The notes beneath the pieces were generated by a model, which saw nothing but the letters and a program-made list of their open reading frames with translations, ran no database searches and was not told the origin of the DNA. Made by a program: the position numbers and the translations under genes. Below are positions 17,498-23,296 of a stretch of 64,000 nucleotides of DNA, one piece after another. How positions within the stretch are numbered: the first letter of the stretch is position 1; each line of letters opens with the position of its first letter. This DNA comes from a virus (Duplodnaviria > Caudoviricetes), in IMG/VR virus record IMGVR_UViG_3300025706_000001, positions 64,868-128,867 of that record. The stretch is one strand, 5' to 3'.

Positions 17498-18345
17498 TTG
17501 ACCTCCCAGGGTGGTAAGACCACCGAACAGGCGCAGTGAGCCCCGTAGCGGCTCGCGCCGGTGCCATAAGCAGATGGAGAATCGAGTCCGTAAGCCTGGA
17601 TTCCGTGCAAGGTCTCACCCCACGCGCCCCAAGAATTGACGTACACAACATAGATCGTATTGCTCTTGAGAGCCAACCGCACGGCGAGGATGCTATGCCC
17701 TGACCGACCGTAGTGGACAGGCCAGCCGTGGCAGAGGGCCGTTAAGAAACCCTGAGCTGAGTCGATCTCGTAGGACTCCTGGATCTTGAACCAGTCGGCC
17801 GTCGCCTCCCAGCCAGTCTGGTAGAGCGACTTACTGTAACCGACTGGACGCATGAACTTGGCGGACGCGGCGTACTGACCCATGATCGCGCGGGCTTCCG
17901 GCGTGTCGATCGGCAAGCTACCTACGTCCTGCTGCTGCTCCAGGCAGTCGCCAACGGATGAACCTGTGTTCGGCCCCGGAGCGATTTTCATGTAGATGCT
18001 GATCGGCGACTGAGGAACAACGCGGTGCTTGCCGAACTGACGAGCCGCGACCACGTTGTACTTCTGGGCACCGGCGTTACAGGTACAAGTACCCTCTCCG
18101 TCTTGGTCGTAGCGGTGGACGATCAGCCGGTCAAGGTTGCCGTCCTGCTCGTCTTGCACCTTAATGAAATCTTTGATCTCCGCATCGGTCATCAGCGGGA
18201 AGGCTTCCTCAAACGCAGGAGCCTTGAACGTGGTCATCGTCGGTTCAGTAGCACCAAGCATCCGGCCTTCAGGGACTACGGCACGGAAGTCGATATCCAG
18301 CCACTTGTCGGACCACGTTTGAAAGATAGGGCTCTCATAGGTCAT
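17494..18345 (-). CDS. Papain-like (C1) cysteine peptidase
   Basis: DQDGEGTC (Gln/Cys), GHSIL (His), VNSWG.WG (Asn). Confidence 0.8.
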   Translation of the reverse strand: MTYESPIFQTWSDKWLDIDFRAVVPEGRMLGATEPTMTTFKAPAFEEAFPLMTDAEIKDFIKVQDEQDGNLDRLIVHRYDQDGEGTCTCNAGAQKYNVVAARQFGKHRVVPQSPISIYMKIAPGPNTGSSVGDCLEQQQDVGSLPIDTPEARAIMGQYAASAKFMRPVGYSKSLYQTGWEATADWFKIQESYEIDSAQGFLTALCHGWPVHYGRSGHSILAVRLALKSNTIYVVYVNSWGAWGETLHGIQAYGLDSPSAYGTGASRYGAHCACSVVLPPWEVK

Positions 18346-19193
18346 AGTCCAGCCTCCTTCAGTTTCGCGGTGATAGCTTCAATCGTCGTAGGCAAGTCAA
18401 CGACGCTTACGACCGAGCCACCCGCGTTGAACAGGACGAGGGCTGGAAGTTGCCGGCCGGCTGCTGCTTGGACGGCTGCATTGACCCGTGGCACAGTCTC
18501 CCCCTTCTGTCCCTTCGCGTCCTTGTCCAGGATCTGGAGCTTCTTGCTCAGACTCTCGTCGTCCCTGATCTTCAGTAGCAGGAGGTTCTGGGCCGGCGTC
18601 ATCTTCTGGGATTCGTACAGGATCATCGCCGAGACCGCCGTTGGAGTCGGCGGTGGAGGAGGGGGGACCGGCCCACCTCCTAATTGAGCCTGCGCGATGC
18701 GGTACGCTGCCAAGGCGTCGGCGAACGTCATGGGGGCAACCAGGGCGATCATTCCGTCTGTCCAAGGCTTCCATGCCGCCGTCTTGCCTGTTGTGGACAA
18801 GATCACTGCCTCAGACCCTTGGATGATCGCCCGCAGGGTCAGCACATCCTTGATGGTGCCGCTCTCCGCGAACCTGATCTGGGCAGCATAGGTGTCCCCC
18901 AAGGAAGCCGATGTCTTGGCCTTGTCGGCATCGTTCACCGCCTGCAGAAAGCCCTTGATCTTGCTCGTTACGTCAGGGACAGGCGGGGGAGGGATGGGGC
19001 CAGAGCCAACCTCGAACAGAACTGTCTTAGTCAGCACCGGTTCGCCGTTGACAAAGCCGACGCTGACCTGCCAGTATTTGCCTTGAGCCAGGGGTTGACC
19101 ATCAGGGCCAATGAAGAGCGTTGTAAGGTCCGCCGCTTGCCCCACCGTTGCCAGCAGGGCCAGGAGCAGAACTGCCAGCAGTCGTGGTCTCAT
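18342..19193 (-). CDS. Exported protein with poly-Pro linkers
   Basis: Signal peptide; GPIPPPPVP and GPVPPPPPPTP linkers. Confidence 0.65.
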   Translation of the reverse strand: MRPRLLAVLLLALLATVGQAADLTTLFIGPDGQPLAQGKYWQVSVGFVNGEPVLTKTVLFEVGSGPIPPPPVPDVTSKIKGFLQAVNDADKAKTSASLGDTYAAQIRFAESGTIKDVLTLRAIIQGSEAVILSTTGKTAAWKPWTDGMIALVAPMTFADALAAYRIAQAQLGGGPVPPPPPPTPTAVSAMILYESQKMTPAQNLLLLKIRDDESLSKKLQILDKDAKGQKGETVPRVNAAVQAAAGRQLPALVLFNAGGSVVSVVDLPTTIEAITAKLKEAGL

Positions 19194-19234
19194 GACAGTG
19201 CCTCCATTTCCACAGAGTTGCGTGGCCGGGAAGG

Positions 19235-19618
19235 TCACTTCGAGAACAGGCTGATGACGATGTTGATGATCTCCGGCAGGTGAGACAGCAGAGCCTCGAA
19301 GAAGCTCTTGCCGTTCTTGATGTCGTTGATAATCGCAATCACCAGGGGGATAGCCACCGGGATGATCTTCAGGATGATCTCGATGAACGACGCGCTGAAC
19401 TTGCCGGTCACCAGGACTTCGCCCGTGGCAAGGTCGATGCCGACGTTCGTCGCGCCTTGCCCTCGCAGGGCTTCGATCACGCCGGGCAGGGCTGCCGAGA
19501 AATCCTGCGCCCCGGCCGAGGCGAACACACCAGCGTCCAGCCCGACGATGCGGATGGAGTTCTCCGTCGCTTGGACTAACACACTGTTACCACCGGCTTG
19601 AAATCTTGCTTCTGCCAT
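19235..19618 (-). CDS. Membrane protein (holin candidate)
   Basis: Hydrophobic C-terminal helices; GAGG RBS; first gene of the block. Confidence 0.55.
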   Translation of the reverse strand: MAEARFQAGGNSVLVQATENSIRIVGLDAGVFASAGAQDFSAALPGVIEALRGQGATNVGIDLATGEVLVTGKFSASFIEIILKIIPVAIPLVIAIINDIKNGKSFFEALLSHLPEIINIVISLFSK

Positions 19619-19718
19619 ACTGCACCTCTCTTTGAGTTTGCCCCGCCCTCACTTCCGCCGAGGCGGCGAGCAGCGGGGGCGAATACGAAACGCACCCACA
19701 AATCTCCTAATGCGATGG

Positions 19719-19749
19719 ATTATAACCGCTAAAGACATTGGCATGTCAA
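19719..19749 (-). promoter_or_regulatory. Candidate sigma70 promoter for the leftward block
   Basis: TTGACA-19 bp-TATAAT on the minus strand (long spacer). Confidence 0.4.
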
Positions 19750-19767
19750 GGCCGAAATACAGAAATG

Positions 19768-19900
19768 CCATCAGCGCATAAAGAAAGGGCAGTGTCCTAA
19801 TTTGGACTTCCTGTTTCACGGACGAGGCAACCCTCGCCTCCACAGGCATTACCGTGCGTCCTACCGACGCCGGATGTTGCACCATTAAGTGCCCGCTGCA
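19768..19900 (-). ncRNA. Putative omega RNA (scaffold plus a guide from flanking DNA); boundaries approximate
   Basis: The tnpB 3' end contains GCCTGTGGAG...GAGGGTTGCCTC...TGAAACAGGAA (CCTG/CAGG complementarity typical of TnpB omega RNAs). The predicted guide begins CTTTCTTTATGCGCTGATGG. Confidence 0.6.
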
Positions 19901-20969
19901 ACACGTTGCGGGCCGCATTTAGGTCGCGGTCAACAACCAGACCGCACGAAGGACAGCGATGAACACGAACCGACAACGACTTCGGTACAGTCTGGCCACA
20001 CTGGCTACACTCCTGACTTGTGCCGCTGGGATTCACGCGAATGAACAGGCCACCAGCTTCTTCCGCTTTGTAGGCCAGACGTTGCGTGAATTGAGTCCAA
20101 GCGGCGTCCAAAATGCTCTTTCCGAGCCGTCCCTGTACCATGCCGTTGACGTTCAAATCCTCCACTGCAATGAATTGATGCTTGCTGACGATTTCCTTGC
20201 TGGCGTGATGGGTAAAGCTCGACCGCAGGTTGGCTACCCGTTCATAGACTCGTTGGAGCCGGTTCACGGCCTTGCGGAAGTTGCGGCTCCCCTTGACCTT
20301 GCGGCTCACTTCGCGATGGGCGTGAGCGAGTTTCCGTTTTGCTTTGCGGGCGAATCGCGGGTTGTCAATGGTGTCCCCGTTGCTCATGGTCGCGAACGTC
20401 TTCAACCCCACGTCGATGCCGACGCAGGAATGGATCGGAACCGGTTGTGGGACCTCGCGATGATCGTCTACGACCAGTTGGGCGAACCACTTGCCAGCCC
20501 GCCGCACAACGTGAAGCTGCTTGATCGTGCCCTTGGTGTACTGCACGTTGCGGGCCTTGATCGGGCCGTTCACGCCGGATACGCGGATGCGTTTGCCACG
20601 CACGCACTTGCCGGGCGATTGAATCGAGAAGCTATTCCAGCGTTGCCACGCCTTGAATCGGGGAAAGCCCGCCTTGCACTTGCCTTCGCGGACTCGTCTA
20701 AAAAAGTGCTGAAACGCAAGGTCCAGACGACGAAGGGCGTCGCGTTCGATTTTAGAGGGCACGTCGGCGAGTGTCGGCATAACCGACCGCAAGATCGTCA
20801 GGTCGGCGGTTTGCGTCATGTAGGACAGAGAGGTTTTGTCGGCTTCGTAGGCGACGATACGTTGTTCGAGAGAGGCGTTGAACAACTGGCGTCCGACATC
20901 GAGAAGATGCTCCAAGCGGGATTGCTGAGCGGGCGTCGGATACAGGCGGGCGGTCATCGTTCGCAACAT
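19797..20969 (-). CDS. tnpB: RNA-guided endonuclease TnpB
   Basis: RLYPTPAQ N-terminus, GFPRFK, RuvC-I GIDVGL, RuvC-II AVEDL, Zn finger TSQECSQCG..CPSCG, RuvC-III DRDLNAARN; all three acidic residues present. Confidence 0.95.
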   Translation of the reverse strand: MLRTMTARLYPTPAQQSRLEHLLDVGRQLFNASLEQRIVAYEADKTSLSYMTQTADLTILRSVMPTLADVPSKIERDALRRLDLAFQHFFRRVREGKCKAGFPRFKAWQRWNSFSIQSPGKCVRGKRIRVSGVNGPIKARNVQYTKGTIKQLHVVRRAGKWFAQLVVDDHREVPQPVPIHSCVGIDVGLKTFATMSNGDTIDNPRFARKAKRKLAHAHREVSRKVKGSRNFRKAVNRLQRVYERVANLRSSFTHHASKEIVSKHQFIAVEDLNVNGMVQGRLGKSILDAAWTQFTQRLAYKAEEAGGLFIRVNPSGTSQECSQCGQTVPKSLSVRVHRCPSCGLVVDRDLNAARNVLQRALNGATSGVGRTHGNACGGEGCLVRETGSPN

Positions 20970-20975
20970 GCCATA

Positions 20976-21004
20976 ATGCTACCAAAACACCATTGACTTG
21001 TCAA
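20976..21004 (-). promoter_or_regulatory. sigma70 promoter of tnpB inside the element, probably giving a leaderless mRNA
   Basis: TTGACA-17 bp-TAGCAT-6 nt-ATG, with the -35 abutting the TIR. Confidence 0.75.
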
Positions 21005-21023
21005 TCCAAATTAGGACACTACC

Positions 21024-21057
21024 AAAGAAAGCCCGTCGTTTCTGGCGGGCTTTCTTT
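21024..21057. terminator. Bidirectional-looking intrinsic terminator; insertion site of the element
   Basis: AAAGAAAGCCCGTC-GTTTCT-GGCGGGCTTTCTTT. Confidence 0.8.
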
Positions 21058-21246
21058 ATCCGGATGGCCGGCGTCGGTGGAGAACTATGATTTGATCTGG
21101 CTCCCGGCGATGGGCGGGCCTCGCTCGTATCGCCGCGTCTCACGCGAAATGTACCTCATTGACCGTCCTCCTAGTGCCATCATGGAACATTGTGAAAAAT
21201 TGGTTTGCCGGTCTTTCTCCGGCGTGTAATTGCATTGTAGCTAGGC

Positions 21247-21654
21247 TTACTCGCCTTCGTCAACCTGATTCGCTCCGATTATTTCGTACACGAAGTCAAC
21301 GGCTTCTTGAATCTCCCTTTCCGTCTGCCTTTCACTCCCTTTCCATGCGACGACATCTCCCCTGGACAGAGAATCCCGCACGTCAGATATGGTTTCACAG
21401 CCATTTCGGTCAAGTAACTCCAGATGTCGAACGCCAAGGCCGTAGTAGGCCAGGATGTGAATCGGAGACAGTTCTCCTACAGGTTCCGACAGGTCATCGG
21501 CGTACTCAAGCCTTGCGCCGCGAACCCGTGAAAAGTGCGTCTCTGTGCCGTCGTCGTCTGGGCCGTGCCGGGCTTCAATCTCCATTCGTTGTCTGACGTA
21601 CTCAGGGGTCACGATCTTTCTGGGTCCTTCGGCAAGCTGATCGAGCGTCAACAT
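21247..21654 (-). CDS. Protein with an RNA polymerase alpha-CTD-like domain
   Basis: GLGVRHLELLDRNGCETISDV...DVVAWKG...TEREIQEAV resembles L.LSVR..N.L...GI.TI.DL....L....G.....EI...L. Confidence 0.5.
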   Translation of the reverse strand: MLTLDQLAEGPRKIVTPEYVRQRMEIEARHGPDDDGTETHFSRVRGARLEYADDLSEPVGELSPIHILAYYGLGVRHLELLDRNGCETISDVRDSLSRGDVVAWKGSERQTEREIQEAVDFVYEIIGANQVDEGE

Positions 21655-21670
21655 ATCGAGATCTCCTGTG

Positions 21671-22123
21671 CTAGACTTCCTCGATAACCCAGTTACCACC
21701 TTCCTTTTTTGGCAGGCGATAGGCCAGTGCGAATGCAATTGGAAAGATTTCGGCAGCAAGTTTGGCCTTGATTTTCGCATCTTCTTCGACGAAGGGCTTG
21801 TACGCGCCGTCTTTCTTGGTTGTGCCCTTTGTGTCAATTAGCCACAGCGAGCCATCGCGGTAGAGCACGGCGAAGTCTGGCGTGTAGAAGGTGTTGTCGG
21901 CAAGCCGAAACTTCATCGCCTCGAATGCCCACCACTGAATGGTTCCGGCCGCTTCGTCTTGCTTCAGCTTCTCGGCAAACGATGCCTCAGTATTGTTCAT
22001 TTCTCCAGATCGTTTTCGCACCCTGCCGCGAGCACGTAGGCCAGCCTTGTCCTGTATTTTCAGGTCCCCAGGCAGTGCTGCAGAACAACCTGTTTTCAGC
22101 CCCGGATAGTCGCGGATGCTCAC
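21671..22123 (-). CDS. PD-(D/E)XK endonuclease (DUF1064-like)
   Basis: MNNTEA, YTPDFAV, IDTKG. Confidence 0.75.
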   Translation of the reverse strand: MSIRDYPGLKTGCSAALPGDLKIQDKAGLRARGRVRKRSGEMNNTEASFAEKLKQDEAAGTIQWWAFEAMKFRLADNTFYTPDFAVLYRDGSLWLIDTKGTTKKDGAYKPFVEEDAKIKAKLAAEIFPIAFALAYRLPKKEGGNWVIEEV

Positions 22124-22151
22124 GTTCGCGCCCTCAAAGGTTCTTTCTGGA

Positions 22152-22988
22152 CTAAAGGTTCCTGGTAATCAGGAACTCGATGTTCACGTCGTTTGCCTGA
22201 TTGCGGCTTGCCATTGTCCGCCATGCCCAACCAAATTCCGGCAGATACAGGCTGCGAATCAGTGGATGATCTCCGAATCGAACCACAACCCTGGCTTGCT
22301 GAAACAGACTTAGGACTGAGGCAAGCCTGCGTTGGCCTGCTTCGTCGATTTTATGCCTGTACTCTTCGCCAGCGCCTGGCCAATTGCAATCGACGTACAG
22401 ACCGTGCATTGGTTCATCTTGGCATTTTGCCAGGAAGTCAAAGGCATCCATGCAAGTGAATTCGCATCGTCGGAAGGTTTCTCCCCAGGAGTCCAGGGCT
22501 TCGATTGCAGTGCGGTAGCGGCGATTGGAGCCGCCTCCGCTGGCGTTCCAGCGGATCGGGAGGCTGCCGTTGAATTCCGAGGCTGTCCCGGCTTTACCTC
22601 CCCGTCCCATCCAGACGCAGACAAAGTAAGCCAGGGCTGCATACTGATCTGGGCACGACGGAAACGATCCGATTGGTCTGGACGCCGCTTCTTGATGCCG
22701 TGCTAACTCGTCAGGATGATACGGAAGAGCGTCTGCTTGTTGCGCGAGCCATTTTCTCGATTCGTCATCCTTAACCACACGACATAAGTTCACGACGTGT
22801 CGATGCAGGTCGTTGCACAAAATCTGTTTGGCGTCGATCCACGGAACCTCGGAACAGCCGCCACAGAACGGAATGTAGACCATTCGGCAGCCAGCAAGTA
22901 AATCGCCGACATTCCTGGCTACATCGGTGCCAGAGCCAAACCACTGGACGAATCGGTCGCTCTTTCGAGGCTTTGCCTTACTGCTCAT
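22152..22988 (-). CDS. Dam/D12-class DNA adenine methyltransferase-like protein with a non-canonical motif IV
   Basis: PFCGGCS, ILCNDL, CMDAFDFL, LYVDCNW in place of DPPY, EFLITR. Confidence 0.7.
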   Translation of the reverse strand: MSSKAKPRKSDRFVQWFGSGTDVARNVGDLLAGCRMVYIPFCGGCSEVPWIDAKQILCNDLHRHVVNLCRVVKDDESRKWLAQQADALPYHPDELARHQEAASRPIGSFPSCPDQYAALAYFVCVWMGRGGKAGTASEFNGSLPIRWNASGGGSNRRYRTAIEALDSWGETFRRCEFTCMDAFDFLAKCQDEPMHGLYVDCNWPGAGEEYRHKIDEAGQRRLASVLSLFQQARVVVRFGDHPLIRSLYLPEFGWAWRTMASRNQANDVNIEFLITRNL

Positions 22989-23296
22989 CTACTAGCCCTC
23001 AGCATCGACTCATTCAGGTGGCCAACCGACTTGTACCAATGACATCCACCATTTCCAGTGACGTAGCCTGCGTCCATGAGCCACATTCTAGCAGCGGCAC
23101 TGCTTACAGCGGTTCCGGTGGTTTGACGAATCGCGTTCTGAAAGCAGGCTGTATTGAATAATGCGCCATGCTTTCCTGGTCCGCCATACGACTGCTTGGC
23201 TTGCCTTGTCCACAGCCAGATCAATAGTCGCCATAAAACACGCCCCATCTGCCTGTCTCCCATAGATCAATAGTGTTCGCGAGCCGGCCGCGTCCG

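Follow-up and report, generated by a model that had tools for sequence, protein, structure and literature searches.

The insertion sequences (ISs) of the IS200/IS605 and IS607 groups that carry TnpB possess neither terminal inverted repeats (TIRs) nor target-site duplications (TSDs) (PMC13565253; PMC6188088), as had been assumed in the original prediction for the locus treated here. TnpB genes are also found in elements of another build. The main text of Altae-Tran et al. (2023, PNAS; PMC10691335) links six branches of the TnpB tree (DDE-1 to DDE-6) to DDE transposases, all of them with inverted terminal repeats; the 3' ends of these TnpB genes mostly lie at most 250 bp from the transposon end, solo TnpBs with ends near-identical to those of transposase-bearing elements are suggested to be mobilised in trans, and the partner family named in that main text is IS630. 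A 2026 review lists ISL2, IS630 and IS1031 as TnpB partners, describes such associations as rare in prokaryotes and argues that DDE transposons gain little from TnpB (PMC13565253). In eukaryotes, TnpB homologues termed Fanzor reside inside DNA transposons with TIRs and TSDs (Bao and Jurka, 2013; PMC3627910). Here we describe a tnpB gene that fills a 1,236-bp element with inverted ends (19788-21023) in a 64,000-nucleotide stretch of DNA from a phage of the Caudoviricetes, the whole of which is called the window in the following.

Termini of the form GGnnnTG together with duplications of 8-9 bp are traits of the IS1 family as defined in ISfinder, and the IS1 and IS1595-type families include members with passenger genes as well as derivatives that are cassettes or miniature inverted-repeat transposable elements (MITEs; ISfinder/TnPedia). 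Siguier et al. reportedly dealt with IS1/IS1595-type insertion sequences, passenger-gene members included, in 2009. We know of no report of TnpB as IS1-type cargo, and a literature search that covered the main text of the 2023 study found no paper linking TnpB with the IS1 family. The element in the window is most probably a non-autonomous IS1-like DDE element that carries TnpB and its omegaRNA and is mobilised in trans. TnpBs with DDE-type ends and suggested mobilisation in trans are a kind of system presented in the main text of the 2023 study; at the locus described here the partner is IS1-like, it is related to TnpB purely in trans, and the carrier genome is that of a phage.

Results

The element, its ends and its gene

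The unit and its immediate borders are made up as follows:

19780-19787: target-site duplication AAAGAAAG (given as plus strand), right-end copy
19788-19806, minus strand: right-end inverted repeat GGCAGTGTCCTAATTTGGA, read inward, on the 3' side of tnpB (sequence and repeat finder)
19797-20969, minus strand: tnpB, 390 aa, the sole long open reading frame (ORF) in the unit (NF040570 match)
20976-21004, minus strand: promoter-like site TTGACA-17-(TG)TAGCAT (sequence pattern)
21005-21023, plus strand: left-end inverted repeat GGTAGTGTCCTAATTTGGA, read inward, upstream of tnpB (sequence and repeat finder)
21024-21031: target-site duplication AAAGAAAG, left-end copy

The original prediction of 19-bp TIRs and an 8-bp TSD around a unit of 1,236 bp is borne out by the sequence itself, by an inverted-repeat finder and by shuffled controls. 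The two arms of 19 nt match at 18 of 19 positions (95% complementary) and are 1,198 nt apart (pair I1 of the repeat finder). With up to three mismatches allowed, the end pattern has no further copy in the window or in the whole phage, and 0 matches are expected by chance (100 shuffles of the window). The duplication of AAAGAAAG is exact (8/8) and lies directly outside both arms; the probability of such a match by chance is ~1.5e-5 at a fixed position. The TnpB unit is present in the phage as a single copy.

On one side of the gene 9 nt of the unit are left, and 54 nt on the opposite side. As foreseen, its TAG stop codon (19797-19799) falls within the right-end repeat, while the -35 hexamer TTGACA (21004-20999) adjoins the left-end repeat and is followed, after a 17-nt spacer, by TAGCAT with a TG before it. 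Since this promoter-like site stops 6 nt short of the ATG, the tnpB mRNA would be leaderless, provided that the site functions as a promoter as its sequence suggests. The encoded protein matches the NF040570 (guided_TnpB) model over its full length (1.7e-90; 304 bits, the cut-off being 100; residues 6-359 aligned with profile positions 2-389) and the Pfam families HTH_OrfB_IS605, OrfB_IS605 and Cas12f1-like_TNB. In an alignment to solved TnpB structures all of the RuvC acidic residues noted previously are in place (D186 in GIDVG, E270 in AVEDLN, D349 in VDRDLN), and the zinc finger is intact as well (C321/C324 and C339/C342). The gene thus encodes an intact TnpB, a predicted RNA-guided nuclease.

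The element contains no transposase, tnpB being its only gene, and the complete phage genome is likewise devoid of IS1-like, Y1 and serine (resolvase-family) transposase genes. Any transposase that acts on the element would therefore have to be provided from elsewhere, most probably in trans by the host or by another element resident with it. The features by which the IS1341 group of IS200/IS605 is recognized (no TIR, no duplication, hairpin ends, a fixed motif) are not those of the element. The same is true for the absence of TIR and duplication that characterizes IS607, and the phage has no resolvase-family gene.

A family of IS1-like elements with the same ends

Other copies of the TIR with different 8-bp duplications were found in viral contigs and in bacterial metagenome-assembled genomes (MAGs), as was an autonomous partner with a DDE transposase, both of which the original prediction had pointed to. 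In viral contigs the exact 19-mer end occurs at seven loci, five of them inverted pairs that bound units of 502, 773, 789, 1,135 and 3,028 bp; three of these units are each flanked by a perfect 8-bp duplication of a different sequence, another by a 7/8 match and the remaining one by a 9-bp repeat. The 3,028-bp unit contains a TrpC-like gene, a small gene of the ribbon-helix-helix type and a gene for a 273-aa protein that matches IS1 transposase models best.

A scan of species-representative genomes with the 17-mer GGTAGTGTCCTAATTTG yielded at least 120 loci, with ~70 expected by chance for a lone 17-mer. A second, inverted copy is present at least at ~60 of the loci, and a perfect 8-bp duplication of varied sequence at least at ~35. 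The units bounded in this way measure 42 bp to 4 kb and stem from MAGs of Acidobacteriota, Verrucomicrobiota, Planctomycetota, Bacteroidota and Desulfobacterales. At least ~25 loci have a protein of ~270 aa between the GGTAGTGTCCTAATTTG ends (40-56% identity). All ten that were tested have NF033558 (transpos_IS1) as their best match (best E 9.8e-21) and share the invariant residues D67, D138 and E201; a comparison of the transposase profile with PDB sequences returned nothing meaningful. As these transposases remain below the NF033558 cut-off, the family is called IS1-like. In autonomous copies, which measure 2.1-4 kb, the transposase gene is usually followed by a conserved ORF of ~100 aa and accompanied by passengers that vary between copies.

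The left end of the window element is identical over 22 nt (the repeat and the next 3) to the left end of the autonomous copy L124, and both of its ends agree with the 17 nt of GGTAGTGTCCTAATTTG with the exception of a C for T at position 3 of the right end. With termini reading GGTAGTG and duplications of 8 bp, the family fits the GGnnnTG-type description of IS1. It resembles IS1 and IS1595-type elements in these traits, in a ~270-aa transposase with an N-terminal helix-turn-helix (HTH) and a D..D..E core, and in having autonomous copies with passengers beside many short non-autonomous derivatives; it differs from IS1 in the sub-cut-off transposase score and the conserved ~100-aa second ORF. 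Among the GGTAGTGTCCTAATTTG matches listed, TnpB was seen at the window's own locus only.

The family (L002-L128) is very widespread, with members in several phyla among MAGs from soil, peat and wastewater, and its end is near-invariant while the transposases diverge to 40-55% identity. MITEs of 42-260 bp are abundant, the short ones measuring 42-150 bp; examples of family members are L024 6362-6507, L090 1792-1833, L004 915-3942 and L022 1422-5496. In the transposase-less units of viral contigs, cargo ORFs enter the inverted repeat and end at its built-in TAG as ...SN or ...PN, like the TnpB of the window:

L002 4673-4897, minus strand: cargo ORF ending in the repeat
L002 5249-5443, plus strand: cargo ORF ending in the repeat
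L006 9656-10129, plus strand: cargo ORF ending in the repeat
L008 4692-5771, minus strand: cargo ORF ending in the repeat

None of these ORFs has a Pfam match; several are membrane-protein-like, and in one the start codon directly adjoins the other repeat.

The empty site

Contigs of four runs (X4, X8, X9, X10) were placed on positions 18000-23000, which they cover in part. One X10 contig joins 19779 to 21024 and thereby skips 1,244 nt, that is the 1,236 nt of the unit plus 8; eight letters fit both sides. This is the predicted empty allele, broken at the boundaries expected for it and with one copy of the duplication kept, as seen in a single contig with 30 nt on its shorter side. The exact empty-site 25-mer has no match in viral contigs. 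Two loose X9 contig ends lie at 19788 and 21025, and their flanks do not match each other. The evidence for insertion consists of this one empty-allele contig, which stems from another sample, together with the matching ends and duplications.

Relatives of the window TnpB

Close relatives (68-80% identity) come from other phage-like contigs (L131, L133, L152, L156, L157, L158, L159). A peptide-pattern search of viral contigs found none, and a metagenome scan gave relatives of 35-46% identity plus one 63% fragment. Within the close-relative set, the window copy alone has a perfect left repeat. The left end reads GGTAGTGCCATCGTTTGAAG in L133 and GGACAGTGTCTCAATTTAAG in L152; in L156 the inner part is all that is present, and the outer part is lost in L131 and L157. 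The layout of the promoter-like site is shared by five relatives; the site is kept in L131, L133, L152 and L156 and not in L157. We read the relatives with decayed left ends as probable old insertions in phage lineages, in which promoter, gene and omegaRNA are all that stays conserved.

A more distant TnpB (41.5% identity) on viral contig L209 resides in a 1,353-bp unit (reverse-complement coordinates 716-2068) with an 8-bp duplication, CCATGATG, on both sides and ends reading GGTAGTGTCCTAACATCGCGTTG. The right end of this unit is doubled, with two copies of ...AGGACACTACC 26 nt apart; the inner copy pairs better with the left end, and the 8-bp duplication flanks the outer one.

The TnpB phylogeny envisaged at the outset has been realized as a small tree (18 rows with long deep branches, L143 being left out as too short). 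When rooted at the midpoint it separates the classical TnpBs, with support of 93/93, from those that share the right end of the window element; L160 and L161, two intermediates with diverged right ends, fall among the latter. Classical IS605-type relatives (~40% identity) have CAGGAAG, a long hairpin and TAGTTCAC, followed by unrelated flank, and long left ends with hairpins; the 54-nt left end of the window element is without their large subterminal hairpins. In classical L135-L147, CAC(G/A)GTAGTGTCCCCCAG occurs in the left end, ~70-90 nt upstream of tnpB, and includes GTAGTGTCC of the IS1-like terminus; this match may reflect either homology or chance.

The IS1-like transposase was seen at none of ~12 TnpB loci of the window clade, which is a small sample. 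When viral contigs were searched with the loose pattern TGAARCAGGAAG-N-CTACC, TnpB was present at 1 of 119 loci, nearly all matches being due to chance. A tighter pattern ending in GGACACTACC found L209, the TnpB-less L168 and one group of five contigs; the latter lies in an HTH-protein gene and is probably a chance match. In another phage of ~128 kb (L131, 3900-4030 and neighbouring positions), a sequence that resembles the 3' half of a tRNA shortly precedes the related TnpB. A portal gene with an intein and a LAGLIDADG-containing terminase gene are close by, so that several selfish elements cluster in this region.

Predicted omegaRNA, presumptive guide and a 20-nt deletion

Two further features lie at the right end:

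19788-19955, minus strand: predicted omegaRNA scaffold of ~170 nt, which takes in the final ~55 codons of tnpB (alignment of nine relatives)
19768-19787, minus strand: presumptive guide-encoding segment, 20 nt outside the right end, CTTTCTTTATGCGCTGATGG in gene orientation (conservation stops at ...CTACC)

The predicted scaffold contains the hairpin GGCGAGG-GTTG-CCTCGTC (19821-19838) and, at its end, the hairpin GTCC-AAATTA-GGAC (19807-19794) followed by an ACTGCC tail (19793-19788); the right-end repeat provides most of the terminal hairpin and the tail. RNAalifold predicted 41 pairs, 11 of them compensatory, from nine relatives. In a specified four-helix structure, 95.8% of the cells are paired and ten pairs have changes on both sides, which none of 500 shuffles reached, and slid controls stay at or below 50% paired. 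The terminal hairpin is 97% paired with two covarying pairs; its stem is conserved and shows compensatory changes in L157 and L159, whereas the loop is variable. Among relatives the GGCGAGG/CCTCGTC stem of the upstream hairpin is replaced by GGGCTCG/CGAGCCC or by further variants. The scaffold has no match to an Rfam family. Close relatives L131, L133, L152, L156, L157, L158 and L159 end in ...GTGAA(A/G)CAGGAAG-GTCC-loop-GGAC-ACTACC, of which the part from CAGGAAG onward is kept in nine relatives; from the next base on, the flanks are divergent. Conservation and covariation identify the right-end repeat as the terminal stem-loop plus the 6-nt tail of the predicted omegaRNA scaffold.

As the right-end repeat lies in the scaffold, the guide would begin at the first base outside the element and consist of the duplication, which makes up the first 8 nt of the presumptive segment, plus ~12 bp; homology with the classical relatives and the TnpB guide rule both point this way. 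The 3' end of the scaffold, ...GGACACUGCC, would run on into the guide CUUUCUUUAUGCG. The inverted repeat itself was considered as the guide and rejected, because homology with the classical relatives places the repeat inside the scaffold. A common target-adjacent motif (TAM) upstream of the duplications was not found among the three readable insertions. Viral contig L168 (13600-13781) has an omegaRNA-like 3' segment (GCCTGTGGAG ... GAAGCAGGAAG-hairpin-ACTACC), upstream of which no TnpB can be recognised. The segment might represent an orphan guide RNA or a remnant.

In a further allele the element is present and 20 nt at its right end are missing (19768-19787, equivalently 19767-19786), the right-end copy of the duplication being lost with them. 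This deletion was found in eight of ten contigs fetched via the downstream gene (L293-L300) as well as in runs X4 and X9 and is the commoner allele among the sampled phage variants. It is derived, because the empty-allele contig contains part of the deleted segment, and it shows how copies without duplication can arise. The deletion is flush with the transposon end, has a microhomology of 1 nt and covers exactly the presumptive guide-encoding segment. Deletions flush with a transposon end are the outcome of transposase-mediated adjacent deletion as carried out by IS1; this process and escape from self-targeting are both candidates for the cause.

The phage and the insertion site

The IMG/VR record of the phage comprises 128,867 bp with direct terminal repeats and is rated complete by CheckV; the window is its second half. 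The phage was detected in wastewater, sludge and digester metagenomes of at least ten studies. Insertion took place at a T-rich spot in an intergenic spacer that is flanked by co-oriented phage genes. One feature of this spacer belongs to the phage itself:

21024-21057, minus strand: hairpin AAAGAAAGCCCG-N10-CGGGCTTTCTTT with the shape of an intrinsic terminator (pair I10 of the inverted-repeat finder)

The element sits within the T-rich 3' flank of this hairpin. A simple terminator scan does not report the hairpin, and an Rfam scan gave two sub-threshold leader matches, both over it. No related isolate phage was found in the 'phages' collection, where the sole matches are 60 nt long and located elsewhere, and the flanking phage protein of 127 aa has no relatives among viral contigs. 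Outside the window the phage encodes two further full-length TnpB genes:

C1:49125-50192 of G000 (locus L285): TnpB 41% identical to that of the window, right end ...CGATCCGGGACACTACC / ...GGGACACTACC
C1:58173-59249 (locus L283): TnpB 33% identical to that of the window

The right-end tail of the L285 TnpB is the same as that of the window element, and a left repeat was not found.

Discussion

It had originally been proposed that an omegaRNA-guided nuclease was captured by an IS1/IS1595-like element moved in trans. Our findings support the type of element and mobilisation in trans. The capture was not a fresh one, as the repeat is built into the predicted omegaRNA: nuclease and vehicle are old partners, given that the right-end repeat forms part of the predicted omegaRNA and is common to TnpBs down to ~41% identity. 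Like the DDE-associated TnpBs in the main text of Altae-Tran et al. (2023), the TnpB of the window lies between inverted repeats with its 3' end near the transposon end (9 nt here, within 250 bp there). The partners differ, IS630 being named in that main text and ISL2, IS630 and IS1031 in the 2026 review, while that of the window is IS1-like. Furthermore, some of the published members carry the transposase in the same element, whereas the window clade and an IS1-like transposase were never found together in one element in our small sample.

Several observations weigh against the conclusion that the element is a TnpB-bearing IS1-like unit moved in trans. The transposases of the family score 57-70 bits, under the NCBI cut-off of 100 for IS1. 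None of the ~25 autonomous copies among the matches listed contains a TnpB, and five genomes with these ends, four of which have a full transposase copy, are without a close TnpB relative. The empty allele is represented by one contig with a shorter side of just 30 nt, while all 20 contigs fetched via the two flanking genes carry the element or its start at the contig end. A second copy of the exact element with its own duplication was not found, the loose X9 ends being all that points to one. The phage has no IS1-like transposase, so that mobilisation in trans is something that we infer. At the position of the TAM the bases differ: ACGGG in the window, TGATC in the X9 flank and CGATG in L209. 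Finally, homologous tnpB loci without these TIRs and TSDs had been named as evidence against the proposal, and such loci exist in part: the close homologues keep the right end, but in L131, L133, L152, L156 and L157 the left end is degenerate or missing and there is no clear duplication (a 5/8 match in L133). These close relatives may move, or may have moved, by another route.

The insertion mechanism that we consider runs as follows. A transposase of the IS1-like family acting in trans most probably inserted the element into a T-rich intergenic spot and duplicated AAAGAAAG. Each new insertion would re-program TnpB against the element-free allele, provided that a suitable TAM lies upstream. 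Cutting of the empty allele in a co-infecting phage and repair from the occupied copy would then allow the element to spread or to be retained without a transposase. Such homing would explain that relatives keep the right end, the promoter and tnpB while left ends and duplications decay. In its most extended form, this would mean that the TnpB lineage (41-100% identity) has co-evolved with IS1-like ends, that each DDE insertion writes a guide from the new target duplication plus flank and that an element inserting at random by cut and join thereby becomes a gene drive whose guide RNA is directed at the element-free alleles of co-infecting phages, of which the 20-nt deletion would be a trace or an escape. 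We regard this as a speculative and rather doubtful extension.

It might be asked whether the inverted ends are a relic, with the element spreading and persisting in phages, and having reached its present site, by omegaRNA-guided homing or recombination instead of DDE transposition. The close relatives with right end, promoter and intact tnpB that have lost the outer left end and the duplication fit this idea, as do the presence of the element in nearly all sampled phage variants from at least ten studies and the second TnpB of the same phage with the right-end tail and no left repeat. On the other hand, homing copies an element into the homologous empty allele and makes no new 8-bp duplication at a new site, whereas in the window, and likewise in L209, the ends are essentially perfect and the duplication is exact. 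The founding insertion at the site therefore bears the marks of a DDE transposase, and we consider it improbable that the element came here by homing or recombination. DDE transposition and homing do not exclude each other.

An ordinary IS200/IS605 (IS1341-type) TnpB-only element, moved by a Y1 TnpA and with ends that seem inverted because of small hairpins, is a far weaker candidate and in our opinion very unlikely. The protein does match the IS200/IS605 model NF038281 (5e-78), though below the cut-off of that model, its more distant relatives are classical IS605-type elements with hairpins at both ends, and a right end made of a hairpin and a short tail is what IS605 right ends look like. 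In fact, the IS1341-group elements L134-L147 encode a homologous nuclease (~40% identity) and share the omegaRNA plan with a guide at the right-end boundary. Their ends, however, are long and asymmetric, with hairpins that bind TnpA and neither TIR nor duplication, as generally holds for IS200/IS605 elements (PMC13565253), while in the window element the IS1-like repeat supplies the terminal hairpin, which is shortened to 4 bp. Moreover, the 8-bp duplication is exact and the 19-nt inverted repeat reaches the outermost base; identical ends occur in a DDE IS family of which dozens of insertions are flanked by duplications; the empty allele is without the element and has exactly one 8-bp copy; the 54-nt left end has no large subterminal hairpins, and the phage has no Y1 transposase. 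Least credible of all is nesting in two steps, in which a TnpB gene landed inside an IS1-like MITE already in the phage so that ends and nuclease are unrelated: family MITEs of 42-260 bp are abundant and family members occur in viral contigs, but the right-end repeat lies within a covarying predicted omegaRNA and is shared by every close relative of the TnpB at its own locus, no more than 9 nt and 54 nt of the unit are left on the two sides of tnpB, and the empty-allele contig lacks the whole unit and not just the gene.

Taken as an IS1-like element with a TnpB passenger, the unit has a counterpart in Fanzor, where a TnpB-type nuclease is likewise cargo of DDE transposons with inverted ends and duplications. 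Fanzors are eukaryotic or giant-virus proteins in other transposon superfamilies, whereas the window encodes a compact TnpB of the bacterial type in a bacterial phage. By functional analogy alone, the element may also be compared with phage homing endonuclease genes, since it is a selfish, intergenic nuclease gene that could cut the element-free allele, and both alleles coexist. Unlike that of phage homing endonucleases, its predicted targeting would depend on an RNA guide that every transposition sets anew.

Cas12 descends from TnpB, which is itself a compact genome editor, and the locus bears on how TnpB survives outside its usual IS605 and IS607 carriers. The locus presents a clean and recent DDE-type insertion of a TnpB-only unit, and one contig suggests that the empty allele still exists in nature. 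One and the same sequence serves as transposon end and as 3' end of the predicted guide-RNA scaffold, and the locus yields related compact TnpB/omegaRNA pairs with defined scaffold ends. The system is well suited for asking whether a borrowed transposase moves TnpB, whether the guide starts at the duplication and whether TnpB may aid the spread of the element between phage genomes.

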